31,196 bases of DNA, taken from assembly GCA_963761515.1 (NCBI GenBank), contig CAVXHO010000035.1, positions 1 to 31,196 of the forward strand, read 5' to 3'. The first letter of the stretch is position 1; each line of letters begins with the position of its first letter. Made by a program: the position numbers and the translations under genes. Positions 6,147-27,735 of this stretch are shown here, in pieces. The stretch comes from an uncultured Actinomycetota bacterium (GTDB lineage: Bacteria > Actinomycetota > Actinomycetes > Propionibacteriales > Nocardioidaceae). A model generated the notes under the pieces. That model worked only from the letters and a program-made list of their open reading frames with translations. It did not search any database and was not told the DNA's origin.

Positions 6147-6214
6147 GCGTGGAGACTACGGCAGCCCTGACGGCACCCGGCCGTCCGGCCCGCCCACAGG
6201 ACGGTGGACGACGG

Positions 6215-7141
6215 TCACCGGCGGCACGCCTCGACCGCGAGGGCCGCGACCGCCCCGATCGCGGCGTCGATCGGCCTCGGGTCCGCACGCGCACGCGGGT
6301 CGCTCCGGGTGAGCACCGCTACGCCGTACGCCGCGCCGTCCGGATGCCGCACCACGCCGATCTCGTTGCGGACCACGCCCATCAGGCCGCCGCTCTTGGC
6401 TGCCACGTGCACACCGGGCGGGAAACCGGCGGCGATCCGGTGCCGGGTCAGCTGCTGTGCCATGGCCGAGCGGACGGCGGCGCAGGCCTCCGGCGGACCG
6501 GCCTCGTCGTTCCAGATCGCACGGAGGAGACCGACGGACTCGCGCGCGGTGGTGCGGCTGCCGCGGGCCGGGTCGAGAGCGGCCGTCCTCGACAGCCGGA
6601 TCCGGATCTCGTCGTCCGTCGGGTCGCCCGGCGCGGATGGCGTGTAGCCCGCGAGGTCGGCGAACGACGCGAAGCCGGCCTCCACCGCCATCTCGTCGAG
6701 CATCGTGGACAGGTCGGCGGTGACCCGGGTGGTGGCCAGCCCGAGCCCGGCCGTGAGCCCGTTGACCGTGTCGAGCCCGACGGCCGCGATCAGCGCGTCG
6801 GTGGCGGGGTTGTCGCTGATGGTCAGCATCAGCACGACCAGGTCTCGCACCGACATCTCCACGTCGTCGTTCATCAGCGAGATCCCGACCGGCCCGGGGG
6901 TGCGCGCGCCCGCGCGCAACACGAGCCGCTCACCGGGATCGAGCGTGCCGTCGCTCATCGCGTTGTGGGCCGCCTGCGCGACCTGCACCTTCATCGCCGA
7001 CCCGGGCGTCATCGGCACGTCGGCGTCGAGGTCGACGACGACGCCACCGTCCAGTGCCATCGCGCACGCCGTGCCGGTGCATCCGGCCTGCTCCAGCCGG
7101 TCCCGGATCGCCGTCCGGACGTCCATCAGAAGGGCGGCCAC
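6215..7141 (-). CDS. Serine hydrolase, class A beta-lactamase-related family
   Basis: Carries the S-x-x-K (SAMK), SDN (ISDNPATD) and KSG (AAKSGG) motifs. An alternative ATG start at 7126 overlaps the upstream gene's stop (ATGA). Confidence 0.7.
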   Translation of the reverse strand: MAALLMDVRTAIRDRLEQAGCTGTACAMALDGGVVVDLDADVPMTPGSAMKVQVAQAAHNAMSDGTLDPGERLVLRAGARTPGPVGISLMNDDVEMSVRDLVVLMLTISDNPATDALIAAVGLDTVNGLTAGLGLATTRVTADLSTMLDEMAVEAGFASFADLAGYTPSAPGDPTDDEIRIRLSRTAALDPARGSRTTARESVGLLRAIWNDEAGPPEACAAVRSAMAQQLTRHRIAAGFPPGVHVAAKSGGLMGVVRNEIGVVRHPDGAAYGVAVLTRSDPRARADPRPIDAAIGAVAALAVEACRR

Positions 7142-7893
7142 GGGATGGCGCGCCAGCCCTGGCCGGGCTCCGGCAGGGTCCCGATCCGCAGCAGCCGCTT
7201 GACGCGCCGGCGGGTCGCCTCCACCTCGTGCCAGGTGAGCAGGTCGCCGAGCTGCTCCCCCAGCTCGTCGTCGAGCCGGTCTGCGAGCTGGTCCAGACTG
7301 ACGCGGTCCGCGTCGGTGAGCAGGTCACCCGCCCAGCCCCACAGGACGGTGCGGAGCTTGTGCTCGACGTGGAAGGTGAGGCCGTGGTCCACGCCGTAGC
7401 GGTGGCCGTCGGTCATCGCCAGCACGTGTCCGCCCTTGCGGTCGGCGTTGTTGACGACGGCGTCGAAGACCGCCATCCGGCGCAGCTCGGGGGTGTCCTC
7501 GTGCACCAACGAGACCACGTTGTCGCGGTCGTCGAGGCCGTCGAAGACGTGGAGGAACCCGTCGGGAACCACCTCGGTGTCGACCAGGGTGACGGCCTCC
7601 TGCACCGGGTCCGGCTCCTGCCACAGCTGGACCATGCCGGGGCCGTGGGGTCCGTCCCGCCGGAAGGTGAGCGGTACGACGTGCCAGCCGAGCGCCTCGG
7701 AGACGACGTACGCCGCCTCCTCGCGCGCCGCGAGCGTGCCGTCGGGGAAGTCCCAGAGCGGGCGCTCCCCCGCGACCGGCTTGTAGATCACGCGGCGCTC
7801 GTCGATCTCGCCGACGAAGGTCGCGTTGGACGCCGGCATCACCCGTCCGTGGAGGGTGAGCGCACCGGCGAGGAGGCCCTGGTCGATCGTCAC
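7126..7893 (-). CDS. SCO1664-family conserved actinobacterial protein (Rv2133c-like)
   Basis: 255 aa. Co-oriented with and adjacent to the DUF3090 and histidine-phosphatase genes, as in mycobacteria and Streptomyces. Confidence 0.55.
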   Translation of the reverse strand: MTIDQGLLAGALTLHGRVMPASNATFVGEIDERRVIYKPVAGERPLWDFPDGTLAAREEAAYVVSEALGWHVVPLTFRRDGPHGPGMVQLWQEPDPVQEAVTLVDTEVVPDGFLHVFDGLDDRDNVVSLVHEDTPELRRMAVFDAVVNNADRKGGHVLAMTDGHRYGVDHGLTFHVEHKLRTVLWGWAGDLLTDADRVSLDQLADRLDDELGEQLGDLLTWHEVEATRRRVKRLLRIGTLPEPGQGWRAIPWPPF

Positions 7894-7899
7894 GGCCGC

Positions 7900-8469
7900 T
7901 CAGGCCGGGTTACGGCGGCGGAACCCGTTCGCCCGGACACAGAGGTGTCCCTCGGGGTCGATCGGGCTGCCGCAGAAGGGACAGTCGGGGCGGCCGGCCT
8001 CGATCACCAGCGCGGCCCGCTGCACGAAGGCACGAGCGGGCCCGGCCTCGAGCCGGACCAGGAAGACCTCCTCCGGCTCGACCTCGTCGACCTCCTCCTC
8101 GTCGTCCTCGTCGGTGGTGTCCATCAGCGGGAACACCTCGATCACGAGGCGGGCGATGGCGGGGTCCCACGAGAGGGTCATCGTGCCGGCGCGGAACTGC
8201 TCGTCGATCGGCTGCTCCAGCGGGCCGGAGTCCTCGAGGCCGACCGGTGCGACAGCGGGGATCAGCGTCTCGGTGCCGCTGCTCGACATCACCTCGTCGA
8301 GCAGCTCGTCGATGCGCTCGGCGAGCACCGCCACCTGCTGCTTCTCGAGGGCGACGCTCACCAGGCGCGGGCCGGAGCGCGCCTGCAGGAAGAACGTGCG
8401 GCCGCCCGGCTCGCCGACGGTGCCCGCGACGAAGCGCTCCGGCGGATCGAACTCGTGGACGACGGGCAT
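7900..8469 (-). CDS. DUF3090-family protein (Rv2134c-like) with a C-terminal CPFCG zinc-ribbon-like motif
   Basis: 189 aa with N-terminus MPVVHEFDPPERF and C-terminal motif PDCPFCGSPIDPEGHLC. It sits 6 nt upstream of the SCO1664-family gene. Confidence 0.7.
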   Translation of the reverse strand: MPVVHEFDPPERFVAGTVGEPGGRTFFLQARSGPRLVSVALEKQQVAVLAERIDELLDEVMSSSGTETLIPAVAPVGLEDSGPLEQPIDEQFRAGTMTLSWDPAIARLVIEVFPLMDTTDEDDEEEVDEVEPEEVFLVRLEAGPARAFVQRAALVIEAGRPDCPFCGSPIDPEGHLCVRANGFRRRNPA

Positions 8470-8489
8470 GTCTCCACCTTATGCAGGCC

Positions 8490-9212
8490 TCACGAAGGGG
8501 GCGTAGAGGGTCCGGCGCCACCGCCCAGCTCGGCACCGCGGTCGCCGCGCCGGCGGGCTTTCGCCTTGCCCGGCTTGGGTGCCAGCCACGAGAGGTCGCC
8601 CTCATGGGTGTTGGAGGCCAGGACGTAGGGCCGGGCCTCGGTGTAGCGGATCACCGAGATCGACGCCGGGTCGACCTGGAGCCGCTGGAAGAGGTCGAGG
8701 TGCATGCCGAGCGCGTCGGCCAGCACGGACTTGATCACGTCGCCGTGGCTGACCGCCAGCCAGACGGCCTGCGGACCGTGGGCAGCCGTGACCTGGGCGT
8801 CCCGCCGTCGTACGGCGTCGACCGCGCGAGCCTGCATCTGCGGCAGGGACTCACCACCCGGGAAGGTGGCCGCCGACGGGTTGGTCTGCACCGTCTTCCA
8901 CAGCGGCCAGCTTCGCGAGCTCGCGGAGGGGCCTGCCCTGCCACTCGCCGTAGTCGCACTCGGTCAGAGCCTTGTCCGCGCGGACCCGTGGCCGCGTCGA
9001 CTGGCGGGTCGCGACGGCGCGAGCCGTCTCGCGGCAGCGCTCCAGGGGACTGCTGACCAGCTCCGCGAGCGGCACCACGGCCAGCCGCTCCCCCGCCCTG
9101 GCGGCCTGGCTCTCCCCGAGCTCGTCGAGGTGTACCCCGGCGTCCGCCCGGCGAGGGTGCCGGAGGCGTTCGCGGACGTTCGTCCGTGCCGAAGCAGGAT
9201 CACCGTGGCCAT
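8490..9212 (-). pseudogene. Histidine phosphatase (phosphoglycerate-mutase-like) family gene, Rv2135c-like, split over three frames by two frameshifts
   Basis: The N-terminus MATVILLRHGRTSANASGTLAGR carries the RHG catalytic motif (9212..about 9140). The middle part VSSPLERCRETA...DYGEWQGRPLRELAKL is in a second frame (8851-9078). The C-terminus FPGGESL...VSHGDVIKS...DLFQRL is in a third frame (8490-8891). There is an extra G near 8890-8900. Confidence 0.7.
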
Positions 9213-14682: not shown

Positions 14683-16017
14683 CTAGACCTGGTCGAGGAA
14701 CCGGTCGAAGACCCGCGCGCCGAACTCCAGCGCATCCACCGGCACCCGCTCGTCGATGCCGTGGAACAGCGCGGTGAAGTCGAGGTCGGCCGGGAGCCGG
14801 AGCGGGGTGAAGCCGTAGCTGCGCAGACCCAGCTTGTTGAAGTGCTTGGCGTCCGTGCCGCCGCTCATCAGGTACGGCGCCACCCGTGCGTCGGGGTCCT
14901 CGGCGAGGAGGCTCCGGGTCATCGCCTCGACGAGGTCGCCGTCGTACGGCGTCTCCCAGGGCTGCTGGTGGGAGATGAAGGATCGCTCGACGCCCTCACC
15001 GCACAGCGCCGCGATCGTGTCGAAGAACTCGTCCTCGTAGCCCGGCAGGAAACGCCCGTCGACGTGGCCGGTCGCCTCGGTCGGGATCACGTTCACCTTG
15101 TAGCCGGCGCCGAGCATCGTCGGGTTCGCGGTGTTGCGGATCACCGCACCCATCATCCGGGCCGCTCCGCCGAACTCCTCGATCAGCGACTCGGCGTTCT
15201 CGGGCGTCGCCTCGGTGCCGGCCATCTCGGCGACCGCGGCGAGCAGGGTCTGCATCGTCGGCGTCAGCCGCACCGGCCACTCGTGGGCGCCGATCCGCGC
15301 CACCGCGGCCGACAGCCGGCTGACGGCGTTGTCGTCGTTGATCATCGAGCCGTGCCCGGCGCGGCCGCGAGCGGTCAGCTTCATCCAGGCCATGCCCTTC
15401 TCGGCCGCCTCGATCAGGTACAGCCGCTGGCCGCGGATCGTCGTACTGAAGCCGCCCACCTCGCCGACGGCCTCGGTGCAGTGCGCGAGATGCTCGCGGT
15501 GGTCCTCGACCAGCACCTGCGCGCCGTGGTGGCCGCCTGCCTCCTCGTCGGCGGTGAAGCACAGCACGATCGGCCGTTCGGGCACCGCACCCGCACGGGT
15601 CCGCGCCCGCACCACCGAGAGCAGCATCGCGTCGAAGTCCTTCATGTCGACCGCCCCGCGCCCCCAGACGTAACCGTCCTGGATCTCCCCCGAGAACGGG
15701 TCGACCTGCCAGTCCTCGGCCGCGGCCGGTACGACGTCGAGGTGTCCGTGCAGCAGGAGGGCGCCCTCCCCGCCGGGGCTGCCGCCCCACTGGGCCACCA
15801 GGGACGTGCGGCCGCTGTCGAGCTCGAACAGCTCGCTCGAGATGCCGACCTCGTCCAGGAGCGCGGCCACGTGCTCCGCGGCCTTCCGCTCCCCCGGTCC
15901 GGACTCGTCCCCGTAGTTCGTGGTGTCGATCCGGATCAGGTCGCGACACAGGTCGACGACCTCGGCGGTCGGGTCGTAGGAAGGGGTGTACGACGACTGT
16001 TCGGTGTCGTGGGACAT
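14683..16017 (-). CDS. M20-family metallopeptidase/dipeptidase (Rv2141c-like)
   Basis: Has the HGHLDVV and DMKD metal-binding motifs. ATG at 16017 (MSHDTEQ...). The longer ORF to 16185 is an artefact that reads through the antisense of the tRNA. Confidence 0.85.
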   Translation of the reverse strand: MSHDTEQSSYTPSYDPTAEVVDLCRDLIRIDTTNYGDESGPGERKAAEHVAALLDEVGISSELFELDSGRTSLVAQWGGSPGGEGALLLHGHLDVVPAAAEDWQVDPFSGEIQDGYVWGRGAVDMKDFDAMLLSVVRARTRAGAVPERPIVLCFTADEEAGGHHGAQVLVEDHREHLAHCTEAVGEVGGFSTTIRGQRLYLIEAAEKGMAWMKLTARGRAGHGSMINDDNAVSRLSAAVARIGAHEWPVRLTPTMQTLLAAVAEMAGTEATPENAESLIEEFGGAARMMGAVIRNTANPTMLGAGYKVNVIPTEATGHVDGRFLPGYEDEFFDTIAALCGEGVERSFISHQQPWETPYDGDLVEAMTRSLLAEDPDARVAPYLMSGGTDAKHFNKLGLRSYGFTPLRLPADLDFTALFHGIDERVPVDALEFGARVFDRFLDQV

Positions 16018-16096
16018 GCCCCCATCCTGACACTCCGTGGGCCGACTCCCGATGTGAGGAATGGGCTCGTCGGTTGCTAGAGTTCCCTCCGCACTC

Positions 16097-16182
16097 GTCC
16101 GGGTGGCGGAATTGGCAGACGCGCTAGCTTGAGGTGCTAGTGCCCGTATTAGGGCGTGGGGGTTCAAGTCCCCCCTCGGACA
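16097..16182 (+). tRNA. tRNA-Leu (anticodon GAG), type II with a long variable arm
   Basis: Acceptor stem GTCCGGG/CTCGGAC. Anticodon arm CTAGC-TTGAGGT-GCTAG, with the anticodon at 16131-16133. T-arm GGGGG-TTCAAGT-CCCCC. Discriminator A. CCA is not encoded. Confidence 0.9.
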
Positions 16183-16185
16183 CAC

Positions 16186-16635
16186 TTATCGGGTCGATCG
16201 CTCCGGATCCGGGGCGATCACCGGTCGCCGGGCGGCCGACATCTCCGCTCGGCGCCGGATCTCGCGCAGCATCCTCTGCGTCGCGACCTGGTGGGCGTGG
16301 GTGCGCATGAGCAGGGCGTGGTAGAGCCGGCCCCTCAGGCCGGGGAACCGGGCGAACGTGTCGGCCGTGACCCGCGCTCCGGGCCCCTCAGGCGCGACGC
16401 GGAACACCAGGCGGTACGTCGCGAACCGGTGTCGGCCGGCCAGGGTGAGCTGGCGGTGGGGCCTCGTGTCGATGATCGTGAAGCCACTCTCGGGCACGGT
16501 CCCGAGCAGCCGGGAGAGCACCCCGTGGCCCGTCCTGCTGAGCGCCGTCGCATAGCCGACGACCGCGGGCCAGGTCTCGTCCTCACCCGCCCGGACCATC
16601 AGCCCGTGCTCGTCCACGAACGGCAACGTGGTCAT
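16186..16635 (-). CDS. SRPBCC (polyketide cyclase/START-like) family protein
   Basis: 149 aa. Its start ATG overlaps the stop of the upstream cytochrome b gene (ATGA at 16632-16635). Confidence 0.45.
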   Translation of the reverse strand: MTTLPFVDEHGLMVRAGEDETWPAVVGYATALSRTGHGVLSRLLGTVPESGFTIIDTRPHRQLTLAGRHRFATYRLVFRVAPEGPGARVTADTFARFPGLRGRLYHALLMRTHAHQVATQRMLREIRRRAEMSAARRPVIAPDPERSTR

Positions 16636-18272
16636 GAGCCCACTCTGCCTCGCCCGGTCAAGGCGGAACGCTCGGTGGTGTCGGACGACGCGTCATCGAG
16701 CTCCCCTCGGGTGGGGGTCGGGACCCGATCGGCGTACAGGGCTCGCGAGAGGCGGCCGCGGATCCGCATCCGCCACCGCCCCCGCCGTAGCACCCCCCGG
16801 TCGGTCTCCGGCTCCGGCGCCACCACCTCGGGGAGATCTCGGGCGGTCAGCCGGTAGGCCCGCCCGACCTCGAGCGGCGCGTGCCGTTCGGTGTAGCCGC
16901 CCTCGGGCGACCGTACGACGACGCCGGTCTCGCGGCCGTGCAGCAACCGGTCCCGGTCCGCCCGCTGGAGCCCCAGGCACCAGGCGCGGGCCACCAGGAA
17001 CACGACCACCGGTACGACGAGCACCGCCGCCCGCATCACGTAGGTGATCTGGTTCAGGCTCAGGTGGAGCCGGGTGGCCAGGATGTCGTTGCCGCCTGCC
17101 AACCAGAGGAGCCCGTAGACGCAGACCATCGCGGCCAGGAAGGCCGTTCGCGTCGGCGCGTCACGCGGACGCTGGAGCAGATGGTGCTCGCGGCGGTCGC
17201 CCGTCACCCACGCCTCGAGGAACGGCCATCCGACGATCAGCCCGAACAGCACGAACGGCAGCACCTGGCCCGGCAGGAGCACGTTCCACGAGACCGTGTG
17301 CCCGGCCACGTGGGTCTCCCAGCCGGGCATGATCCGGAGCAGACCCTCGGCGATCGCCAGGTACCAGTCCGGCTGCGATCCGGCCGTCACCTTGGACGGG
17401 TCGTAGGGGCCGTACTTCCAGACCGGGTTGATCGAGAGCAACGCGCCCATCAGCGCCGTCACCCCGAACACCATGCAGAAGAAGCCGGTCGTCTTCGCGA
17501 CGTAGACCGGCAGCAGCGGATAGCCCACGACGTTCTTCTCGGTGCGACCCGGGCCGGGCCACTGGGTGTGCTTCTGGACGAAGACGAGGGTCACGTGCAA
17601 CGCGACCAAAGCCAGCAGGATCCCGGGCAGGAAGAGCACGTGCAGGACGTAGAAGCGAGGGATCACCGAGTCGCCGGGGAACTCGCCGCCGAAGAGCAGG
17701 AACGACAGGTAGGTGCCGACCACGGGGGTGGCCTTGATCAGGCCGTCGGCGATCCTCAGACCGGTGCCCGACAGCAGGTCGTCCGGGAGGGAGTAGCCGA
17801 GGAACCCCTCCAGGATCCCCACCAGGAGCATGGTCGCCCCGATCAGCCAGCTCACCTCGCGCGGCTTCCGGAAGGCGCCGGTGACGAAGACCCGCATCAT
17901 GTGCACGAACATCGCGGCGATGAAGATCATCGCGGCCCAGTGATGCATCTGCCGGATCAGCAGACCACCCCTGACGTCGAACGTGAGGTGCAGCGTCGAG
18001 GCGTAGGCGTCCGACATCGGCACGCCGCGCAGCTGGGCGTACGAGCCCTGGTACGTCGACTCCGACATGCTCGGGTTGAACCAGAAGGTCAGGAAGGTGC
18101 CCGTGACCAGCAGCACCACGAACGACCAGAGCGCGATCTCCCCGAGCATGAACGACCAGTGCTCGGGGAACACCTTGCGCAGGTAGCCCCGGCTGAGCCG
18201 GGCCAGGCTCAGCCGGTCATCGGCCCACTCCGCGGCGCGGGCGACGCCGCGACCACGCGTCCCTGTGCTCAT
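16632..18272 (-). CDS. qcrB: Cytochrome b of the bc1 (menaquinol-cytochrome c reductase) complex, QcrB family, stand-alone copy
   Basis: 546 aa. N-terminus MSTGTRGRGVARAAEWADDRLSLARLSRGYLRKVFPEHWSFMLGEIALWSF and the heme-ligand His regions (RQMHHWAA, FYVLHVLFLPG) match actinobacterial QcrB. GGAGGAG lies 5 nt before the ATG at 18272. No Rieske or cytochrome c1 gene is adjacent. Confidence 0.88.
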   Translation of the reverse strand: MSTGTRGRGVARAAEWADDRLSLARLSRGYLRKVFPEHWSFMLGEIALWSFVVLLVTGTFLTFWFNPSMSESTYQGSYAQLRGVPMSDAYASTLHLTFDVRGGLLIRQMHHWAAMIFIAAMFVHMMRVFVTGAFRKPREVSWLIGATMLLVGILEGFLGYSLPDDLLSGTGLRIADGLIKATPVVGTYLSFLLFGGEFPGDSVIPRFYVLHVLFLPGILLALVALHVTLVFVQKHTQWPGPGRTEKNVVGYPLLPVYVAKTTGFFCMVFGVTALMGALLSINPVWKYGPYDPSKVTAGSQPDWYLAIAEGLLRIMPGWETHVAGHTVSWNVLLPGQVLPFVLFGLIVGWPFLEAWVTGDRREHHLLQRPRDAPTRTAFLAAMVCVYGLLWLAGGNDILATRLHLSLNQITYVMRAAVLVVPVVVFLVARAWCLGLQRADRDRLLHGRETGVVVRSPEGGYTERHAPLEVGRAYRLTARDLPEVVAPEPETDRGVLRRGRWRMRIRGRLSRALYADRVPTPTRGELDDASSDTTERSALTGRGRVGS

Positions 18273-18454
18273 GTGCTCCTCCCCGGTCGGGCGCGGCGAG
18301 TTCACCGGCCCGAGAGTGAAGACACCGCCGGCCGTCCGGTTGTGACATCGCGCCCGCCGGGCCCTCTCGAGCCGGCGGCGGATGCGACCGAGATCCCGGA
18401 GGACCAGCTCCTGGCCGCGTGGCGCGAGGAGCTGGATCGCTGAAGCTGGCGGGG

Positions 18455-19423
18455 TCAGGCCTCGCCGCGGTCGGGGGTGGGGTCGAGGAAGACGTAGCGC
18501 ACCTCCGGGAACCGGCCCCTGATGCGCTCCTCGACGTCGTCGGCCGCATGCTCGAGCTCCTCCGGCGAGAGATGGTCGGCCAGGTCGACCCGCGCCGCCA
18601 CCAGCACCTGGTCGGGCGACAACCGCATGGTCAGCAGCTCGAGCACCGAGTCGACCCCTTCGGTCGATGCGATCAGCCGGCTGATGTTCTCGCGGAGCGG
18701 CTGCGGTGCGGCCTTGCCGATGAGGTACTGCTGGTTCTGCCGACCAAGCCCGTAGGCGGCGACGACCAGGAGCGCGGCGATGGCCAGCGATGCCAGGCCG
18801 TCGTACGTGCGGCCGCCGGTGGCGGCGTCCAGTGCCAGCGCGCCGGCGGCGAGCAGGAGCCCGACGAGGGCGACCCCGTCCTCCCACACCACGGCACGCA
18901 GTGCCGGGTCTGCCTCGTGCCTGAGGTGACTGATCATGCCGACGCCGGCCCCGCGGGCGGTGCCGCGCAGCTGCCAGACCGCCCGCAGGAACGACGTGCC
19001 CTCGAAGACGAACGAGAACCCGAGCACCACGAAGGGCCAGGTCGGGGAGCCCGGCGGCTCCGAGCTGGTGAGGGCCTTGACCCCCTGGTACGCCGAGAAC
19101 CCGGCCCCGAGCACGAAGATGCCGACGGCGGCCAGGAAGGACCAGAAGTAGCGCTCCATCCCGTAGCCGAACGGGTGCTCCTCGTCCGGCTCCTTGCGGC
19201 TGCGATGAAGAGCCGCCATCAGGAACCCTTGGTTCACGGTGTCGCCGATCGAGTGCGCTGCCTCGGACAGCATCGCCGCCGACCCGGAGGCGAGCCCCGC
19301 CGCGAGCTTGGCGACGGCGATCAGCAGGTTCGCCGCGCCGGCGACCAGCACAGTCGGGGTGGACTCGTCCTCGGCCATGCCCACGTCGTACCCGATCACG
19401 GCCAGGGCACCGCTCTGTGGCAT
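18455..19423 (-). CDS. Cation diffusion facilitator (CDF) family metal efflux transporter
   Basis: Has six transmembrane helices and the HSIGD and H-x-x-x-D motifs in TM2/TM5. An alternative ATG start at 19378 gives MAEDEST. Confidence 0.82.
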   Translation of the reverse strand: MPQSGALAVIGYDVGMAEDESTPTVLVAGAANLLIAVAKLAAGLASGSAAMLSEAAHSIGDTVNQGFLMAALHRSRKEPDEEHPFGYGMERYFWSFLAAVGIFVLGAGFSAYQGVKALTSSEPPGSPTWPFVVLGFSFVFEGTSFLRAVWQLRGTARGAGVGMISHLRHEADPALRAVVWEDGVALVGLLLAAGALALDAATGGRTYDGLASLAIAALLVVAAYGLGRQNQQYLIGKAAPQPLRENISRLIASTEGVDSVLELLTMRLSPDQVLVAARVDLADHLSPEELEHAADDVEERIRGRFPEVRYVFLDPTPDRGEA

Positions 19424-19441
19424 GCCGGTGGCCGGGGCTGC

Positions 19442-20182
19442 TCAGCGTTCGGAGGCACCGAGTCCTTGGGCGATGCCCCAGAGGACCGCCTGGGAGCGGG
19501 TCGCCGCGCCGATCTTGCGGTACGACGAGCGGACGTAGGACTTGACCGAGTTGATGCTGACGGTGAGCGCCGCCGCGATCTCCGCATTGCTGTAGCCGGC
19601 CGCAATGAGGTCGAGCACATCCGCCTCTCGCGGCGTCAGTCCGGCTTCCTCCCGGGACCACCGGACCTGGACGTCTGCCGGGTCCGCCGGTTGCGCCGGC
19701 CCACTGACGACGGGATCTCCCCGACCGACCCGCTCGATCGCCTCGACGAGCTGCCGTGCGGGCAGCGACTTCGCGATGTAGCCGCGGTAGCCGTGCTGCA
19801 GGGCCGCGGTCACGAGATCGGCCCTGGTCTCCCACGAGTAAGCGGCGACCCTCGAGCCCCCTGCGGTCGGGGGCGCGGGGAGCGCGCGCACGACGCCTTC
19901 ATGGACGCCACTGGGGTAGCAGTCGAAGAGGATGACGTCCGGGGACGTGGGGCTGCTCGACGAGGCGCTGGTCCCCGCTCCGGCATGGTGGATCCGCACC
20001 CGGGCGGCATACGGCGCGAGCATCTGCTGGAGCCCTCGGGCCACGAGCTCGCAGTCACCGAGCAAGGCGACCGTGAGTGCAGTGGGGCGCGCCGAGGGCA
20101 CCGAAGGTCTGTCGCCGCGGGAGGCTGCGGGCAGCGCGTCTCCCGCGCACCCCGCATCGGGGCGCACAACGAGCCGAGTCAT
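19442..20182 (-). CDS. LuxR-family transcriptional regulator with an atypical receiver-like N-domain
   Basis: C-terminal LuxR helix-turn-helix (LTPREADVLDLIAAGYSNAEIAAALTVSINSVKSYV). The REC-like domain has GD in place of the DD acidic pair but keeps the ILFD phospho-site analogue. ATG at 20182 with an AGGA. Confidence 0.78.
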   Translation of the reverse strand: MTRLVVRPDAGCAGDALPAASRGDRPSVPSARPTALTVALLGDCELVARGLQQMLAPYAARVRIHHAGAGTSASSSSPTSPDVILFDCYPSGVHEGVVRALPAPPTAGGSRVAAYSWETRADLVTAALQHGYRGYIAKSLPARQLVEAIERVGRGDPVVSGPAQPADPADVQVRWSREEAGLTPREADVLDLIAAGYSNAEIAAALTVSINSVKSYVRSSYRKIGAATRSQAVLWGIAQGLGASER

Positions 20183-20334
20183 CCGGGGTCCTGGGTTGAC
20201 TAGTCGTGGTACCGCTGCTCGTGATCAAGCAGCAACTTCGCATCTCAGGTGACGACGAGGTGCTCTCACACGTTACTCGCCGACCCGCGAACGGTTCTGA
20301 AATCGCGCTCGCGAAAGTACTCTGAGCATCGTCA
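20183..20334. promoter_or_regulatory. Divergent intergenic region between the LuxR regulator and the first GAF-ANTAR gene, relatively AT-rich
   Basis: A local GC drop (ttctgaaatcgcgctcgcgaaagtactctgagcatcg) between divergently transcribed regulators. No specific operator could be assigned. Confidence 0.3.
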
Positions 20335-21081
20335 GTGCAGCATCCGGGGGCGTCGCTCGCGACCGGGGAGGGAGTGTCGTTGGAACCGCTTCCGGAGACC
20401 GAAGAGGCTCTCGACGAGTACCTCGAGGAAGACGACTCCGACCTGCGAGCCGTGCTCATGGAGCTGGGGCGGCGCGCCGTCGAGCTGGTGCCCTCGTGTG
20501 TCGGCCTGAGCCTGGGCATGGTGAAGGACGGCCTGACCTTCACGCTGGTGGCCACCAGCGAGCAGGTGGCGACCATCGACGCGGCGCAGTATCTCGACGG
20601 CGGACCGTGCGTGGACGTGGCCACCGGCTCCGACGTTCTCGACGTGGACATCCCCGACCTGCTCGACGAGGGGAGGTGGTCGGCGTTCGCGATGACGAGC
20701 GCGGCTCATGGAGTGCGGACCACCTTGTCCCTTCCCATCGTCCGCGACGGTCAGCTGGTCGGAGGCGTCAACCTGTACGCCGCGGAGCTCCACGCTTTCG
20801 ACGGCAAGCACGAGGCGCTGGCGATGGCTCTGGGAGCCTCCGCGGAAGGAGCGGTGGCCGACGCAGACCTGGAGTTCACCTCGCGCGCTCGCGCGGTCGC
20901 CACACCCGCAACCATGGCAGACCTGCGCACCATCGACATGGCCGTCGGCATCCTCGCCGCGCGAGACCGCACGGACGTCGACACCGCCAGGGCACAGCTC
21001 CAGGACTCGGCCACGCGAGCAGGAGTGACTCTCGTACAGGCTGCCAGCGTCGTCGGCTACCTGCGGGAGAAGCGCCGTTGA
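20335..21081 (+). CDS. GAF domain plus ANTAR (RNA-binding antiterminator) domain regulator
   Basis: N-terminal GAF-like region. C-terminal ANTAR motif LRTIDMAVGILAARDRTDVDTARAQLQDSATRAGVTLVQAA. GTG at 20335. An alternative TTG at 20380 lies behind a GGGAGGGAG. Confidence 0.72.
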   Translation: MQHPGASLATGEGVSLEPLPETEEALDEYLEEDDSDLRAVLMELGRRAVELVPSCVGLSLGMVKDGLTFTLVATSEQVATIDAAQYLDGGPCVDVATGSDVLDVDIPDLLDEGRWSAFAMTSAAHGVRTTLSLPIVRDGQLVGGVNLYAAELHAFDGKHEALAMALGASAEGAVADADLEFTSRARAVATPATMADLRTIDMAVGILAARDRTDVDTARAQLQDSATRAGVTLVQAASVVGYLREKRR

Positions 21082-21120: not shown

Positions 21121-21843
21121 TCAGCCGTCCGCGGTGAGTGCCCTCATGACCCGCTTGTCGTGGAGGACGTCTCGCGCCAGATCGGTCAGCTTCACCCGGT
21201 GGTGTCGCGCATACCGCCTCAGGATGTTGAACGCCTCGTCGACGTCGACGTCGAAGGTGCGGGCAACGGCACCCTTGGCCTGCTCGATCACGATCCGGCT
21301 GTTGAGCGCGAACTGCAGCTGCTCCGTGAGCTCCTCCGCGCGCCGGAGACCACGCTCCTGCATGAGCGCGATGGTGGCGACGTCGGCGAGGGCTCTGGCC
21401 ACGCGGCGCTCGTCCTCGCCCAGGAACGAGCTCTGGACGCGGAACACGTTCATGGCGCCGATCACCTGATCCCGCAATCTCAGGGGGAAACAGTGAGTCG
21501 TGGTGAACCCCAGCTCGATGGCCCTCGGAGCGAACGCCGGCCACCGCGCCATCGACGATGCGATCTCGACATCCGCCACCTCCTCGCCCGAGCTGAAACA
21601 GTCCAGGCACGGACCTTCGGCGTGCTGTACCTGGAAGAGCTCGAGCAGACGGGCATCCTCGTTCGAGGAGGCCATCGGGCTGAGTCCCCCGCGATCGGCC
21701 AGCATGACCCCGACGGCCGCGGACCCCGTGACCTCGGCAGCGTCGACCGCGACGGTGTGCAGGAAGTCGACCAGGTCGAAGTCGTCGACCAGGGTGTCCG
21801 CCACCTCAACGAAGACATCCGCCAGGCGTGTACTGCTGATCAC
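21121..21843 (-). CDS. GAF plus ANTAR domain regulator (paralogue 2)
   Basis: C-terminal ANTAR motif LNSRIVIEQAKGAVARTFDVDVDEAFNILRRYARHHRVKLTDLARDV. Confidence 0.75.
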   Translation of the reverse strand: MISSTRLADVFVEVADTLVDDFDLVDFLHTVAVDAAEVTGSAAVGVMLADRGGLSPMASSNEDARLLELFQVQHAEGPCLDCFSSGEEVADVEIASSMARWPAFAPRAIELGFTTTHCFPLRLRDQVIGAMNVFRVQSSFLGEDERRVARALADVATIALMQERGLRRAEELTEQLQFALNSRIVIEQAKGAVARTFDVDVDEAFNILRRYARHHRVKLTDLARDVLHDKRVMRALTADG

Positions 21844-21879: not shown

Positions 21880-22647
21880 TCACGAGCCGGCGCCCGGTGA
21901 TCCGTCCGGCGTCGGCAGATGTGCGCCCCCGAGGACCTCGCGAGCCACATCGAGGAGGCTCACGTCGCGGCTGAACGCGTGAGCGCGCATCAGCGACAGT
22001 GCGTCTGCCAGGTCGACCTCCAGGTCGACCATCACCATCCCCTGCGCCTGATGGATCTCCGCCCGACGTTCCAGGGCTTCGACGAGCCGTGCGTTCACAT
22101 CGCCGGCCGAGGCTCCCGGATCGGGGTCGAGCAGTCGCTCCACCGCCAGATCGGCGAAGGTCAGGGCGAGTGAGACCTGGTCGGACCCCAAGAGACCGGG
22201 ACTCGCGGCGTACAGGTCCAGCACCCCCAGCCGGACGGCGCCGACGTGGAGCGGCAGGGAGAAGCAGGCGGCGATCCCGAACCCACGGACGGCACTGACG
22301 TACCCGGGCCAGATGTGCTGACCCTGCTCGAGGAGATCCGGCGCGAACACCGGGCGGGACTGGCTGTAGGCGTCCAGGCTCGGTCCTTCCCCGGTCGCGA
22401 AGGCGGCCTCCCCGACCGCGCGGGCTACCTCGTCGGAGCTGGCCACCACACCGCCGCCGTTCGGGCGGTTCAGGAGGTGGACCGACGCGCCGGCGAGGCT
22501 CAGTGTTGCGGTCGCGGCCCGGCAGATGCGCTGCAGGACGGCCGGCAGGTCGTGCACGTCCTCGTCCGCCCTGGCCGCCGACATGGCCATCAGGGCGAAC
22601 TCACGCCGTCCCGGTCCCGGAGGGCCTGTTCCGTCGTGCGCAGTCAC
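21880..22647 (-). CDS. GAF plus ANTAR domain regulator (paralogue 3)
   Basis: C-terminal ANTAR motif LERRAEIHQAQGMVMVDLEVDLADALSLMRAHAFSRDVSLLDVAREV. It lies 36 nt upstream of paralogue 2 on the same strand. An alternative ATG start at 22590 exists. Confidence 0.75.
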   Translation of the reverse strand: MTAHDGTGPPGPGRREFALMAMSAARADEDVHDLPAVLQRICRAATATLSLAGASVHLLNRPNGGGVVASSDEVARAVGEAAFATGEGPSLDAYSQSRPVFAPDLLEQGQHIWPGYVSAVRGFGIAACFSLPLHVGAVRLGVLDLYAASPGLLGSDQVSLALTFADLAVERLLDPDPGASAGDVNARLVEALERRAEIHQAQGMVMVDLEVDLADALSLMRAHAFSRDVSLLDVAREVLGGAHLPTPDGSPGAGS

Positions 22648-22736: not shown

Positions 22737-23561
22737 TCAGGTAAGGGCGATGGCCGCGTCCGGCTCGGCGACCTTGAACGTGAACGACTCCTCCAGGTAG
22801 AGGTGCACCTGCTCGGCGTCGTGGTGGTGGTAGCCGACCGAGATGTCCTGCCCGACGTCGAGGAGGAAGTCGTCACCCCGCTGGCTCACCACCAGGGCTC
22901 CGGTGAGCCCGGGCGAACGGACGACGCTGCCCGACTCGAGGACCCGGCTCAGGTGGTCCATCAGCGGGTAGCCGCCGTGCTCGGTGGTGGAGACGATCGC
23001 GGTGTAGCGCTCGGGGTCGATGGCCAGGGCATAGGGGCCCTCGATGCCGTTCTGGCGCAGCTCGTCGGCCGCCACCGCCACGATGCCGGGGTACGCCGAG
23101 CAGTCGTCGCCCAACGGCCGTGACGGGTAGGGCGAGGCTTCGGTCATGCCCACGATGTCGGCGGCGGACCAGCCGTTCAGGACGGCCCGGTTCTCCAGCT
23201 CGGCGGCGACCCGTGCGGCTCGCGCGAGGTCGTCGAGCTCGGGGTCGCGGCTCCCGCGCTGAAGGTCGTCGATCTCACCCCGGGACACGGTGAACGGCAC
23301 GCGGTACTCCGCCAGCGGCAGCACCCGGCGCCTCCGGAGGAGGACACCCGTGGCGTCGAGGCCGGCCGGTGGGGCCTCGAGGGTGTCGGTCCGGCCCAGC
23401 GACATCGCGTCGTGCCGCCAACCGCCGGGCCCGACCCAGTCGACGAGACGACGGGCCGCCAGCAGCGGGGTCAGCCGCTCCTTGGCCTCCTCGTCGATCG
23501 CCTTCCAGGCCAGGTCGGGGATGGGGGCATGGTCGCGGAGGAGATGGTTGGGAGACGTCAT
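22737..23561 (-). CDS. Family 1 encapsulin nanocompartment shell protein (linocin M18-like, HK97 fold)
   Basis: 274 aa. N-terminus MTSPNHLLRDHAPIPDLAWKAIDEEAKERL, PFTVSRGEIDD, and C-terminus GYHHHDAEQVHLYLEESFTFKV match encapsulins. AAAGGA Shine-Dalgarno. The ATG overlaps the cargo gene stop (ATGA). Confidence 0.9.
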   Translation of the reverse strand: MTSPNHLLRDHAPIPDLAWKAIDEEAKERLTPLLAARRLVDWVGPGGWRHDAMSLGRTDTLEAPPAGLDATGVLLRRRRVLPLAEYRVPFTVSRGEIDDLQRGSRDPELDDLARAARVAAELENRAVLNGWSAADIVGMTEASPYPSRPLGDDCSAYPGIVAVAADELRQNGIEGPYALAIDPERYTAIVSTTEHGGYPLMDHLSRVLESGSVVRSPGLTGALVVSQRGDDFLLDVGQDISVGYHHHDAEQVHLYLEESFTFKVAEPDAAIALT

Positions 23562-24157
23562 GCTGATGGTCCTTTCAGGCTTCCGATGCCGAGCGAGCCG
23601 TCGGTCCGGCGCTCGGTCGAGCCGTCGTCGTTGGGGTGGAGGTCGGACTCGATCTCGTCGACGTACTCCTGCGGGTCCTTGTCGTCGGTGTCGACGCCGG
23701 CGGTGGTCGGATGGCGGTCCAGGTACTCCTCGAGCTCGCGACCGAGCTGCTCGCGGAGCTCGGGGGCCGCGTGCTGCCGGAAGTCGGCGATCCCGTCGCG
23801 CTCCTCCTCGGCCATGTGCTCGTCGTTGGCCTTGCGCGTCGCGAGCACGGCCGCCCACCACTGCTCGCTGGCGACCGGTTGGCGGGCGGCGTCGTGGACC
23901 CCGTCCCGGATGTCGTTGTGGTCGCCGATCGCGTCCAGGGTCTCGTCCTCGGGGTCGTCCTCGCCTCGCGCCAGCAGCTGCGGGTAGAAGACGGCCTCCT
24001 CCCCTGCTGCGTGTACGTCGAGCCGGGCCGCGAGGGGCTCCCAGATCGCGGCGATCGCCGCCACGTCGGGAGCCGACACGGCGTAGAGGTCGTACAGGGC
24101 GATGAACTGTCTGCGGAACCACGCATGGTCGCGCAGGATCACCTCGGTCACGTCCAT
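23558..24157 (-). CDS. Hemerythrin-like (HHE cation-binding) encapsulin cargo protein with a C-terminal targeting peptide
   Basis: Has H...HxxxE-type motifs (ILRDHAWF, VHAAGEE, IGDHND, DEHMAEEE). The C-terminus RTDGSLGIGSLKGPSA matches the family-1 encapsulin cargo-loading peptide consensus (SLxIGSLK). Start ATG at 24157, or TTG at 24196. Confidence 0.8.
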   Translation of the reverse strand: MDVTEVILRDHAWFRRQFIALYDLYAVSAPDVAAIAAIWEPLAARLDVHAAGEEAVFYPQLLARGEDDPEDETLDAIGDHNDIRDGVHDAARQPVASEQWWAAVLATRKANDEHMAEEERDGIADFRQHAAPELREQLGRELEEYLDRHPTTAGVDTDDKDPQEYVDEIESDLHPNDDGSTERRTDGSLGIGSLKGPSA

Positions 24158-24298
24158 GGTGACCACCGTAGCCAGATCGGGCCGCTCCGAAACCAACCGT
24201 CAGGTGGGTGGTCCGTTACGGGGGAGGTCGCGCTGCCCGGGCGGCCCTAGCGTCGTCCCTCTCTCGTGCCTGCTGACCCGCCACCCGAAGGACGACCC

Positions 24299-26667
24299 AT
24301 GAGCCCAGACCGGCACGCCCGCAGCATCCTGCCGATCCCCGACCGGCCGACGCCGGGCCTGACGACGTACGACGCCAAGGACCCGGACTCGTCGTTCCCC
24401 GCCATCGAGCCTCTGCTGCCGCCCGAAGGCGCTCCCAACGTGCTGATCGTGCTGCTGGACGACGTGGGGTTCGGTGCCTCGTCGGCCTTCGGAGGGCCGT
24501 GCCAGACCCCCACGGCCGAGCGGCTCGCAGCCGGAGGTCTGCGCTACAACCGGTTCCACACGACCGCCCTGTGCGCGCCTACGCGGCAGGCGTTGCTGAC
24601 CGGTCGGAACCACCACTCGGTCGGGATGGGCAGCATCACCGAGACCGCCACCTCGGCTCCGGGCATGAGCTCGCTGCGGCCGAACACCAAGGCGCCGCTG
24701 GCGACCACGTTGAAGCTGAACGGGTACTCGACCGCCCAGTTCGGCAAGTGCCACGAGGTGCCGGTCTGGCAGTCGTCGCCCATGGGCCCGTTCGACGCCT
24801 GGCCCACCGGTGGCGGCGGGTTCGAGACGTTCTACGGCTTCATCGGCGGGGAGAACAACCAGTACGACCCGGCCCTCTACAACGGCACGACGCCCGTCGA
24901 GCCTCCCGCGACGCCCGAGGAGGGCTACCACCTCACCGAGGACCTCACCGACCATGCGATCAGCTGGGTGCGTCAGCAGAAGGCTTTGATGCCCGACAAG
25001 CCCTTCCTCGTCTACTTCGCACCGGGCGCCACCCACGCCCCGCACCACGTCCCGTTGGAGTGGGCGGACAAGTACGCCGGCCAGTTCGACGACGGCTGGG
25101 ACGCTCTGCGCGGGCGCACCCTGGCGCGGCAGAAGGAGCTCGGCGTCGTACCCGCGGACACCGAGCTCACGGCGCGGCACGACGAGATCACCGCCTGGGA
25201 CGACATGCCCGACGAGCTCAAGCCGGTGCTGGCGCGGCAGATGGAGGTCTACGCCGGGTTCCTCGAGCACACCGACCACCATGTCGGCCGGCTCATCGAC
25301 ACCCTGGCCGACCTGGAGATCCTCGACGACACGCTCGTCTACTACATCATCGGCGACAACGGCGCCTCGGCCGAGGGCACCATGAACGGGGCCTTCAACG
25401 AGATGGCCAACTTCAACGGCATGGCCGCGGTCGAGACGCCCGAGTTCATGGTCAGCAAGGTGGACAGCTTCGGCACGCCAGACTCCTACAACCACTACTC
25501 GGTCGGGTGGGCGCTGGGCGATGAACTCCCCACTCCAGTGGACCAAGCAGGTCGCCTCCCACTGGGGCGGCACCCGCAACGGGACCATCGTGCACTGGCC
25601 CCGCGGGATCGAGGAGCGCGGCGGTCTGCGGTCGCAGTTCACCCACGTGATCGACATCGCGCCCGACGATCCTCGAGGTCGCCGGGCTGCCGGAGCCGAC
25701 CATGGTCAACGGCGTCATGCAGTCGCCGATCGAGGGCACCAGCATGATGTACAGCTTCAACGGACCCGACGAGCCGGAACGCCACGACCTCCAGTACTTC
25801 GAGATGTTCGGCAACCGGGGCATCTACCACCGGGGCTGGAGTGCTGTCACCAAGCACAAGACGCCGTGGCTGATCCTGGACCCCCACATGGGCGCCTTCG
25901 ACGCCGACGTGTGGGAGCTGTACGACGGCAGCAGCGACTTCAGCCAGGCCCGCAACCTCGCGGCCGACGATCCGCAGCGGCTCGCCGACCTGCAACGGCT
26001 CTGGCTGATCGAGGCCACGAAGTACAACGTCCTCCCCCTCGACGACCGGTCGGGCGAGCGGCTGAACGCCGACCTGGCCGGGCGGCCGACCCTCATCCAC
26101 GGCAACTCGCAGCTGCTGTTCTCGGGCATGGGGCGGCTCACCGAGAACAGCGTGGTGAGCATCAAGAACAAGTCGTTCTCGGTCACCGCCGACGTCGAGC
26201 TGGGCGAGGCCCCGGCGGAGGGCGTGCTGATCGCGCAGGGGGGTCGCTTCGGGGGCTGGGCCTTCTACGTCAAGGGCGGCAAGGCCAAGTTCGTGTACAA
26301 CGTGCTCGGCATCCACGAGTTCGCGACGGAGTCCGATGACCCCCTTCCCGCCGGTCACCACCAGGTGCGCGTGGAGTTCGCGTACGACGGGGGCGGCCTG
26401 GCCAAGGGTGGAGGTGTGACGTTGTACTGCGACGGCGACCAGATCGGCGCGGGCAGGGTCGAGATGACCCAGCCGATGATCTTCTCCGCCGACGAGACCA
26501 CGGATGTCGGGTACGAGTCCGGAACCACCGTGACCCCGGACTACACCACGGCGACCAGCCGCTTCACCGGCCGGATCAACTGGATCCAGATCGACCTCGG
26601 CGACGACGACCACGACCACTTCATCGACCCCGACGAGCGGCTGCGGATCGCCATGGCGCAGCAGTGA
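24299..26667 (+). pseudogene. Arylsulfatase (Cys-type, formylglycine-dependent), reading frame broken by two +1 frameshifts
   Basis: Has LLDDVGFGASSAFGG and the CAPTR signature (ALCAPTRQALLTGR). The frame shifts after ...YSVGWA (about 25515) into NSPLQWTKQVASHWGGTRNGTIVHWP, and again after FTHVIDIAP (about 25663) into ILEVAGLPEPTMVNGVMQSPIEGTSMMYSFN. The C-terminal domain continues to the stop at 26667. Confidence 0.85.
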
Positions 26668-27399: not shown

Positions 27400-27735
27400 A
27401 TGAGCACAGCGGACGGCCACAGCGCGTGCTGCGCCCCGGCGGTCTCCGACGTCCCGTCGACCGCCGCGGACCGGGTCGCCGACGTCGCTCCCCGCTCGGG
27501 AGCGCGCCCGCACGGGATGGTGCCGGTCGCAGGCGGCCGGCTGCTGATGGGCGACCCGTTCTCCGAGGGCTACCCGGACGACGGCGAGACCCCCGTCCAC
27601 GCGGTCGACGTCCCGTCGTTCCTCATCGATGCGACCCAGGTGACGAACGCCCAGTTCGCGACCTTCGTCAAGGAGACCGGGTGGGTCACCGACGCCGAGG
27701 ACCTCGGCATCTGGTGTTCCACCCGGTCTCCTTGA
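27400..27735 (+). pseudogene. Formylglycine-generating enzyme (FGE/SUMF1-type sulfatase-modifying factor), N-terminal about 105 aa only, truncated at the inversion junction
   Basis: GMVPVAGGRLLMGDPFSEGYPDDGETPVHAVDVPSFLIDATQVTNAQFATFVKETGWVTDAEDLG matches the FGE N-terminus. The expected continuation (WSFVF...) is replaced after about 27715 by reverse-complement sequence. Confidence 0.75.

Follow-up and report, generated by a model that had tools for sequence, protein, structure and literature searches.

An orphan QcrB paralogue of Nocardioidaceae preceded by an ECF41-type promoter signature

The locus and its cytochrome b

The window analysed here is contig CAVXHO010000035.1 of an uncultured Nocardioidaceae bacterium in its entire length of 31,196 bp (70% G+C, actinobacterial), and the record holds no sequence past its edges. 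It contains a gene for an actinobacterial-type cytochrome b, QcrB, which stands apart from the ctaE-qcrCAB operon, together with an ECF41-type promoter signature that was absent from the initial annotation and is the most informative feature of the locus. In order of transcription, the minus strand carries a LuxR/NarL-type regulator gene, a CDF exporter gene, a 182-bp spacer, qcrB, and the gene of a small protein, here called p149. The features are listed below; clade A is defined in the next section, and labels such as L001 denote loci of relatives.

19442-20182, minus strand: LuxR/NarL-type regulator gene (GerE E=4.5e-15), upstream of the CDF gene and listed for context only
18455-19423, minus strand: gene of a CDF-family divalent-cation exporter (Pfam and NCBIfam)
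18321-18347, minus strand: ECF41-type promoter signature TGTCACA-N16-TGTC, TGTCACAACCGGACGGCCGGCGGTGTC, the sole match in the window
18276-18284, minus strand: Shine-Dalgarno sequence GGGGAGGAG, 3 nt before the qcrB ATG, read from the sequence
16632-18272, minus strand: qcrB, encoding an orphan QcrB paralogue of clade A with 546 aa (NF050120 and tree)
16186-16635, minus strand: gene of p149, a predicted SRPBCC/Bet v1-fold protein of 149 aa (Polyketide_cyc2/DUF2867 family; fold model and homologue profiles)
16097-16183, plus strand: tRNA-Leu(GAG) (ARAGORN and Rfam), convergent with the p149 gene and 2 nt from its stop codon

The initial annotation had placed qcrB outside any qcrCAB/ctaE operon, with neither qcrA nor qcrC nearby, and this is the case across the entire contig: tblastn with QcrA, QcrC and CtaE queries from a canonical Nocardioides operon returned no match in the 31 kb. 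The CDF gene reported upstream on the same strand is found at 18455-19423. Likewise, the p149 ATG overlaps the qcrB stop codon as ATGA at 16632-16635, as had been noted, and the same 4-nt overlap is kept in L001 and L086.

The cytochrome b is matched over nearly its whole profile. NCBIfam model NF050120 (bc1_QcrB_actin) gives 747.9 bits, its cutoff being 500, with residues 16-469 covering profile positions 1-454 of 458, and Pfam Cytochrom_B_N_2 gives E=4.5e-62. Residues 8-468 match the solved QcrB chains of Mycobacterium smegmatis, Mycobacterium tuberculosis and Corynebacterium glutamicum in the PDB, with E values of about 1e-154 to 1e-164.

The bis-histidine ligands of haems bL and bH lie on helices B and D of cytochrome b. 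In an alignment of 84 sequences, M. smegmatis QcrB included, His110, His111, His124, His211 and His226 are invariant, and from these residues the four haem ligands were assigned as His111 (or the adjacent His110), His124, His211 and His226. The ef loop of the quinol-oxidation (Qo) site reads SQPDWY and is conserved, PDFY or PDWY being the actinobacterial equivalent of the Qo motif PEWY. The remaining Qo contact positions correspond to one of two canonical Nocardioidaceae variants. The initial annotation had singled out the four haem-ligand histidines and the Qo and Qi residues for inspection; the histidines and PDWY are present and the Qo site is canonical-like, and the departures are found among the contacts of the menaquinone-reduction (QN) site, described below.

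Paralogy and clade-specific residues

The best 80 loci were surveyed with one genome per GTDB species, and a qcrB was called orphan when no qcrA, qcrC or ctaE lay within 6 kb of it. The arrangement is canonical at 66 of the 80 loci, with qcrA, qcrC and ctaE directly upstream of qcrB, and the gene is an orphan at 12. Locus L056 has the operon with an apparently frameshifted qcrB, and L080, which starts at a contig end, was left unclassified. In the Nocardioides relative L002, the canonical genes run ctaE-qcrC-qcrA-qcrB beside ctaCDF, and its QcrB is 74% identical to that of the window. Canonical and orphan copies occur together in the metagenome-assembled genome (MAG) MFD05442.bin.1.269, which holds canonical copy L005 and orphan L053, and MAG MFD04212.bin.2.17 holds two orphans.

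Clade A consists of ten genes: those of the window, L001 and L086 (hereafter the window trio), those of L003, L004 and L087 (the sister subclade), and those of L007, L021, L024 and L047. Its bootstrap value by neighbour-joining is 77, or 95 without L047. A second group, clade B, contains L026, L030, L049, L053 and L067 with a bootstrap value of 100, and L045 is a singleton orphan. With M. smegmatis QcrB as the root, a long branch leads to a single group that holds every Nocardioidaceae sequence, orphans included, so the duplications are placed within the family. Judging by these trees, orphan QcrBs arose several times within Nocardioidaceae. The phylogeny against canonical QcrB that the initial annotation had proposed thus assigns the window copy to an orphan clade internal to this family.

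The clade-A genes occur in six different genomic contexts, as expected of an accessory gene. The CDF-qcrB-p149 arrangement is present only in the window trio, in which the QcrBs of L001 and L086 are 95% and 90% identical to the window copy. The sister subclade (QcrB 78-83% identical) has an MFS-qcrB-MFS arrangement with a 10-nt gap before qcrB, the upstream MFS gene being disrupted in L003, and the other clade-A copies adjoin DUF2630, acyl-CoA dehydrogenase, TetR or DUF4873 genes. A conserved CDF-QcrB-SRPBCC module is therefore not borne out: the pairing is limited to relatives at least 90% identical, and the next subclade has MFS genes instead. The same applies to the co-occurrence of qcrB and the SRPBCC gene in other genomes, which is restricted to the window trio, since p149 homologues with 75% identity are found without a cytochrome b. 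The arrangement is a local, recent juxtaposition and is unimportant in itself.

The orphans outside clade A have surroundings of another kind. The clade-B orphans L030, L053, L049 and L067 (about 7700-8585) and the singleton L045 (4945-5640) adjoin a MerR-DICT regulator gene. The orphan qcrBs of L030 and L053 have, in addition, a UbiE/MenG-type methyltransferase gene divergently upstream, to which L053 adds an NDH-2-like gene. Such neighbours suggest that clade B and L045 come under another regulon, one related to quinones.

Within clade A, the ratio of nonsynonymous to synonymous substitution rates (dN/dS) of the core is 0.10-0.21, over dS values of up to about 0.7, and canonical pairs give 0.04-0.19. 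Clade-A qcrB is kept under purifying selection. Together with the full-length NF050120 match above the cutoff, these low values agree with the initial description of the gene as a full-length, intact cytochrome b, and with its haem ligands and PDWY in place the protein appears functional.

The clade departs from canonical QcrB at positions that are invariant in 67 canonical sequences, namely, in M. smegmatis numbering, N140S/T, L147M, A261T/S and G262T/S; with the changes at 261 and 262, AKAGG becomes AKTTG or AKSSG. For the QN site of M. tuberculosis, contacts with the menaquinone head group have been reported at six residues, L232, W236 and F262 among them (PMC8616580). The changes at 261 and 262 sit four to five residues after the F262 contact. 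In the window trio only, the segment after the bH ligand changes from the canonical HMLLLVYH to HVTLVFVQ, and with it two of the six reported QN contacts are altered: V227 stands at the equivalent of M. tuberculosis L232, where the canonical state is Met in 66 of 67 sequences, and F231 at that of W236, where it is Val in all 67. Two further candidate signatures were rejected. Ala at the equivalent of M. tuberculosis T313, considered as a telacebec-type resistance signature, is also found in 42 of the 67 canonical Nocardioidaceae QcrBs, and the Qo motif WPD, considered as specific to clade B, also occurs in 25 canonical sequences, and is thus phylogenetic rather than paralogue-specific.

The initial annotation had further regarded a basic C-terminal extension as unusual. 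The extension itself is the norm for actinobacterial QcrB (about 80-100 aa) and is here on the short side, whereas its basic composition does differ. Canonical Nocardioidaceae tails average 101 aa after the core and are net acidic (R+K about 11 versus D+E 21), compared with 79 aa, 17 R+K and 12 D+E in the window QcrB. Canonical tails close with a conserved His/acid-rich segment, HHAEHEHELEAGLDHPAAGHEFDDH... (e.g., L002 11450-11752), which possibly binds metal and which all clade-A orphans lack. Clade-A tails are shorter than canonical ones, and that of L004 is truncated. Hence, the genuine differences are the basic composition and the truncation, not the presence of an extension.

The upstream signature and neighbouring genes

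The signature at 18321-18347 falls within the CDF-qcrB spacer, with about 48 nt between it and the downstream qcrB ATG. Roughly the 3' 75 nt of this spacer are conserved in the window trio, and the 5' part diverges. Clade-A upstream regions from unrelated contexts share gaTGTCACAa-N13-GG(T/C)GTCTT, in which the boxes are conserved and the spacer is not, and TGTCACA-N16-(C/T)GTC is found upstream of all ten clade-A operons, the L024 copy being degenerate. The pattern TGTCRCA-N13-15-GKYGTCT, with a chance expectation of 0.02 per 31 kb, yielded nine matches in 1.17 Mb (the window plus 1.14 Mb of relatives' loci), all of them on the coding strand and upstream of clade-A operons. No match was obtained in the 66 canonical loci, in any clade-B locus or in the loci of p149 homologues. 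The published ECF41 consensus is TGTCACA-n16-CGTC, and TGTT and TGTC also occur as -10 boxes among the promoters listed with it (PMC3426412). A distance of 8 nt from the -10 box to the ATG in L021 and L047 is compatible with leaderless transcripts.

Operons of the sister subclade have the motif ahead of their leading gene, the MFS gene upstream of qcrB. Beside each MFS-qcrB-MFS group, on the opposite strand, lies a gene for an ECF41-like sigma factor with sigma regions 2 and 4 and a SnoaL/DUF4440-like C-terminus; in L087 it is 1.6 kb from the second MFS gene and is preceded by an epimerase fragment, a classical neighbour from the COE group (carboxymuconolactone decarboxylase, oxidoreductase or epimerase). 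Given that the signature stands between the CDF gene and qcrB, the transcription unit in the window is probably qcrB-p149, with the CDF gene separate. Inclusion of the CDF gene in the unit is not supported, given this conserved ECF41-type promoter signature.

The sister loci also hold two or three ECF41-type signatures within about 1.8 kb (L003 2850-4326, L004 2544-4329, L087 171-474). These face an SDR oxidoreductase gene and a gene for a 230-aa membrane protein, both on the opposite strand, as well as the MFS-qcrB operon, with PAP2 and sigma factor genes near. The cluster has the appearance of a multi-operon ECF41 regulon.

Other explanations of the spacer were tried and set aside. The TGTCACAA half looks like a half-site of a Rex operator, yet it has no inverted partner, and the ECF41 signature is preferred. 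An RNA element or riboswitch finds no support, as Rfam gives the tRNA only and the predicted folding of the conserved block is not superior to that of shuffled sequence (z = -1.44). A leader peptide was likewise rejected, the frame from the upstream ATG not being conserved between the window and L001. A scan of 15900-20400 for sigma-70 promoters and intrinsic terminators found none.

The call of an SRPBCC protein for the small gene is weak at the level of its own sequence, with a Polyketide_cyc2 match of E=0.025 and 15.3 bits, below the cutoff of 27.4. It is borne out by the homologue profiles and the predicted structure. Its family comprises 64 homologues, mostly Nocardioides-like and some named DUF2867; at E<=0.01, 17 of 43 match Polyketide_cyc2 and 15 of 43 match DUF2867. 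The AlphaFold model from the family alignment has a pLDDT of 91.5, with strands at 6-14 and 53-96 and helices at 18-44 and 99-136. In Foldseek, the top 38 PDB matches of the model are all of the SRPBCC/Bet v1 fold (probability 1.0, TM 0.5-0.58), and the structural matches include Rv2186c, MSMEG_5634, CalU16, TTHA0849, CoxG and the PYL receptors. The model thus confirms a helix-grip fold, with an antiparallel beta-sheet wrapped round a long C-terminal helix.

The p149 gene is constrained (dN/dS of 0.13-0.23). Its homologues with 75-76% identity are flanked by an acyl-CoA dehydrogenase gene on one side and an acyl-CoA ligase (AMP-ligase) gene on the other, and no cytochrome b gene is close by. 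The p149 protein probably binds a hydrophobic ligand, possibly menaquinone, which in Nocardioides is usually MK-8(H4). A precedent for such a role is CoxG, an SRPBCC protein that extracts and carries menaquinone (bioRxiv 10.1101/2024.01.09.574806); nothing specific ties p149 to CoxG. At L085 (2748-4157), a textbook ECF41 sigma gene (291 aa, SnoaL_2) and a carboxymuconolactone decarboxylase gene form a pair some 2 kb away from the gene of a p149 homologue with 52% identity. A general link between p149 and ECF41 was nevertheless rejected, for the L085 locus contains no TGTCACA-N16-YGTC match.

The CDF gene is also constrained (dN/dS of 0.11-0.16). It matches Cation_efflux PF01545 (E=1.8e-39), the C-terminal dimerisation domain ZT_dimer PF16916 (E=1.7e-7) and TIGR01297 (168.2 bits versus a cutoff of 82.35), and none of the equivalog models FieF, ZitB, MntE and DmeF reaches its cutoff for this protein. 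The LuxR/NarL-type regulator at 19442-20182 has a weak receiver domain (Response_reg, 19.6 bits, below the cutoff of 30.2).

The tRNA-Leu(GAG) gene forms the border between a variable block and a conserved core that begins with an M20 peptidase gene and continues with genes for an E1 dehydrogenase, an aldo-keto reductase, UppP, CorA, a DUF3090 protein, an MshC-like ligase, a PAC2 protein and MetH. Integration of a genomic island at this tRNA was considered and rejected, as the window shows neither a second copy of the tRNA 3' end nor an integrase. In L086 the block is not beside tRNA-Leu or the M20 peptidase gene, despite a degenerate tRNA-like remnant there: about 28 nt after the p149 stop codon (L086 9362-9390, compared with window 16156-16184) resemble the 3' end of tRNA-Leu(GAG) with about 80% identity. 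This remnant could be an att-like trace of a mobile block.

The variable block is collinear from a hemerythrin-encapsulin pair through p149 in all members of the window trio. The genes for hemerythrin (23558-24199, minus strand) and a family-1 encapsulin (22737-23561, minus strand, Linocin_M18 E=2.7e-74) share 4 nt, and 22737-24199 on the minus strand has the look of an operon for an encapsulin with hemerythrin cargo. Between it and the LuxR-type regulator gene come three GAF-ANTAR regulator genes in a row (20335-21081, plus strand; 21121-21843 and 21880-22647, minus strand), which are kept in L001 and L086, the latter having a fourth copy as well as PAS histidine kinase, sigma factor and CsbD genes downstream. 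Compared with the window, L001 carries a 3.25-kb insertion (5601-8855) between the LuxR-type regulator and CDF genes, with LigD ligase, primase-polymerase, DUF421 and hypothetical genes.

Comparison with L001 also reveals apparent frameshifts in the window, at 24266-26667, 27400-27735 and about 8490-9078: a sulfatase gene (788 aa in L001) is split into two open reading frames, a His_Phos_1 gene is split, and an FGE-sulfatase gene is present as a fragment only. These are probably long-read assembly errors, and single-base details of the contig hence need care.

Interpretation and comparison with known systems

We infer that a canonical operon lies elsewhere in this genome, because the operon is invariant in the family, the clade-A contexts are variable and accessory-like, clade A departs from canonical QcrB at canonical-invariant positions, and the promoter signature is of an alternative-sigma type. 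The reading we favour, with somewhat more confidence than doubt, is that the window qcrB encodes an ECF41-induced alternative, condition-specific QcrB isoform of the actinobacterial menaquinol:cytochrome c reductase (bcc complex). That clade-A qcrB arose by duplication inside Nocardioidaceae is shown by its position in the rooted tree. An ECF41 (SigJ-like) sigma factor encoded elsewhere in the genome would switch on qcrB and the overlapping SRPBCC gene, leaving out the CDF gene. The new QcrB would then assemble with QcrA and QcrC of the canonical operon, as its 74% identity to canonical QcrB leads us to expect, and would replace the housekeeping QcrB, changing the properties of the quinone site or of the supercomplex. 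The SRPBCC partner would be a recent addition. As for conditions, ECF41 factors have been associated with late stationary phase and with oxidative or redox stress. M. tuberculosis SigJ, a member of the group, is reportedly up-regulated in late stationary phase and influences H2O2 resistance (PMC5766207).

Several points weigh against this reading. No ECF41 sigma gene is found in the 31-kb window or in the available sequence of L001 and L086, and the -10 box in the window trio is TGTC rather than CGTC. COE genes were the only detectable targets in the original ECF41 study (PMC3426412). No clade-A-bearing MAG yielded a canonical copy among the 80 loci, and no canonical qcrCAB operon lies on the 31-kb contig. 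The trees are by neighbour-joining only. The promoter call is drawn from the sequence signature and from physical linkage in the sister subclade, and the expression and complex assembly of clade-A QcrB are likewise deduced from sequence.

The altered QN pocket also invites an explanation as inducible protection against a quinone-site toxin, which we consider unlikely. An ECF41 factor, whose SnoaL-like domain may bind the ligand, would sense a hydrophobic or quinone-like compound and induce the altered-pocket QcrB along with efflux pumps or a sequestering SRPBCC protein. The sister promoter would drive MFS-qcrB(-MFS), with divergent signatures before the SDR oxidoreductase and membrane-protein genes and with PAP2 and sigma genes adjacent; the window partner is an SRPBCC protein with structural neighbours that include CalU16 of the calicheamicin producer Micromonospora echinospora, and the QN contacts depart from invariant canonical residues. 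The Qo residues, however, are a canonical variant, as is Ala at the T313 equivalent, the SRPBCC and MFS partners are not common to the whole clade, no biosynthetic cluster or known resistance determinant lies nearby, and no toxin is known. We are similarly sceptical of a broader variant, in which one-component-like ECF41 sensing of a quinone-like compound or redox signal would bring about a swap to a QcrB with a remodelled QN pocket and a different tail, co-expressed with pumps or an SRPBCC carrier. That the gene could instead be the sole QcrB of its organism, relocated from ctaE-qcrCA in a split operon, seems improbable. This would account for the missing canonical copies in clade-A-bearing MAGs and for a constraint as strong as that on canonical copies. 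It is at odds with the position of qcrB directly after qcrA in 66 of 66 canonical loci, with clade-A contexts that differ in almost every genome, with the loss of the conserved tail motifs and of canonical-invariant residues, and with an alternative-sigma signature in place of a housekeeping arrangement; moreover, canonical and orphan copies co-occur in one MAG, albeit for clade B.

Following an idea of the initial annotation, the cytochrome b could stand alone, apart from QcrA and QcrC, and work with the SRPBCC protein, the CDF exporter or both in a new module for quinol oxidation, haem handling or a metal-linked task. The overlap of qcrB and p149 in three genomes, the ability of an SRPBCC protein to carry menaquinone, as CoxG does (bioRxiv 10.1101/2024.01.09.574806), the absence of the His-rich canonical tail from all clade-A copies and the metal exporter gene adjoining in the window all speak for such a module. 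We hold it to be quite unlikely, as only relatives with an identity of 90% or more keep these partners and the promoter signature separates CDF from qcrB. The identity of 74%, which extends to the Rieske-facing Qo residues, argues for a normal complex and fits a bcc isoform; the stand-alone role gains no support. A redundant duplicate without a distinct role, neutral or being lost, is very improbable: the contexts are accessory-like, the L004 tail is truncated and the upstream MFS gene of L003 is disrupted, yet dN/dS stays at 0.10-0.21 over dS of up to about 0.7, and the clade persists in ten or more lineages, all of which have the conserved promoter signature and clade-specific conserved substitutions.

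The favoured reading, an ECF41-induced bcc isoform, can be set against the systems it resembles. Canonical actinobacterial QcrBs in CIII2CIV2 supercomplexes (M. smegmatis 7rh5 and 6adq, M. tuberculosis 7e1v, C. glutamicum 7q21) belong to the same family and length class and have in common with the window copy the eight-helix core, the four haem-ligand histidines, the PDWY/PDFY Qo motif and a C-terminal cytoplasmic extension. Unlike them, the window copy lies outside ctaE-qcrCAB and has changed QN contacts, a shorter basic tail and an ECF41-type promoter signature of its own. The SRPBCC proteins Rv2186c (8jmy), MSMEG_5634 (7wa9), CalU16 (4fpw) and CoxG (8uds) have the same predicted fold as p149, with an identity of only 10-17% and TM of 0.44-0.58; p149 has no membrane anchor of the CoxG kind, and the neighbours of its family are usually acyl-CoA dehydrogenase or ligase genes rather than respiratory ones.

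Known ECF41 regulons (Bacillus licheniformis Ecf41, Rhodobacter sphaeroides Ecf41, M. tuberculosis SigJ and SigI; PMC3426412, PMC5766207) have the same signature as the window, with -35 TGTCACA, a 16-nt spacer and -10 (C/T)GTC, and the R. sphaeroides RSP_0606 promoter starts TGTCACAACCG, as the window signature does (PMC3426412). In the sister subclade, as in the ECF41 pattern, the operon is linked to a sigma gene that encodes a SnoaL-like C-terminus and has an epimerase gene beside it. The targets known so far are adjoining COE genes or sigI, and a cytochrome b, MFS or SRPBCC target is not described in PMC3426412 or PMC5766207.

ECF41 sigma factors, SigJ and SigI among them, are widespread, and almost no targets are known beyond adjacent COE genes. 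If a cytochrome b is indeed such a target, this would provide a testable link from the sigma group to a remodelled bcc complex; were that complex indeed defended by inducible target replacement, the ECF41 group would gain its first physiologically interpretable regulon. Telacebec-class antituberculars act on QcrB, which lends naturally occurring isoforms with a changed quinone pocket a certain interest for the study of inhibitor tolerance.

Orphan QcrB paralogues as a kind are already known from Streptomyces coelicolor, whose two copies QcrB2 (SCO7120) and QcrB3 (SCO7236) are encoded away from the qcr-cta locus (PMC7931247). The clade-wide ECF41 promoter signature and the recurrent, context-hopping qcrB duplicates of Nocardioidaceae appear to be new, neither having been met in the literature compared. 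QcrB3 was found in spore preparations, co-purifies with bcc-aa3 components and nitrate reductase 1 (Nar1), and was proposed as a spore-specific substitute for QcrB in the bcc-aa3 supercomplex (PMC7931247). The 74% identity of the window copy to canonical QcrB fits a swap-in bcc isoform of this kind. The two nonetheless differ: QcrB3 is 55% identical to its own canonical QcrB in that account, compared with about 74% for the window copy, there are no nar genes near the window qcrB, and the passages of PMC7931247 consulted note neither an ECF41 promoter nor an SRPBCC partner for QcrB3. As the tree puts the orphans inside Nocardioidaceae (SCO7236 itself being outside the alignment), the window qcrB would represent an independent, more recent duplication rather than an orthologue of QcrB3.

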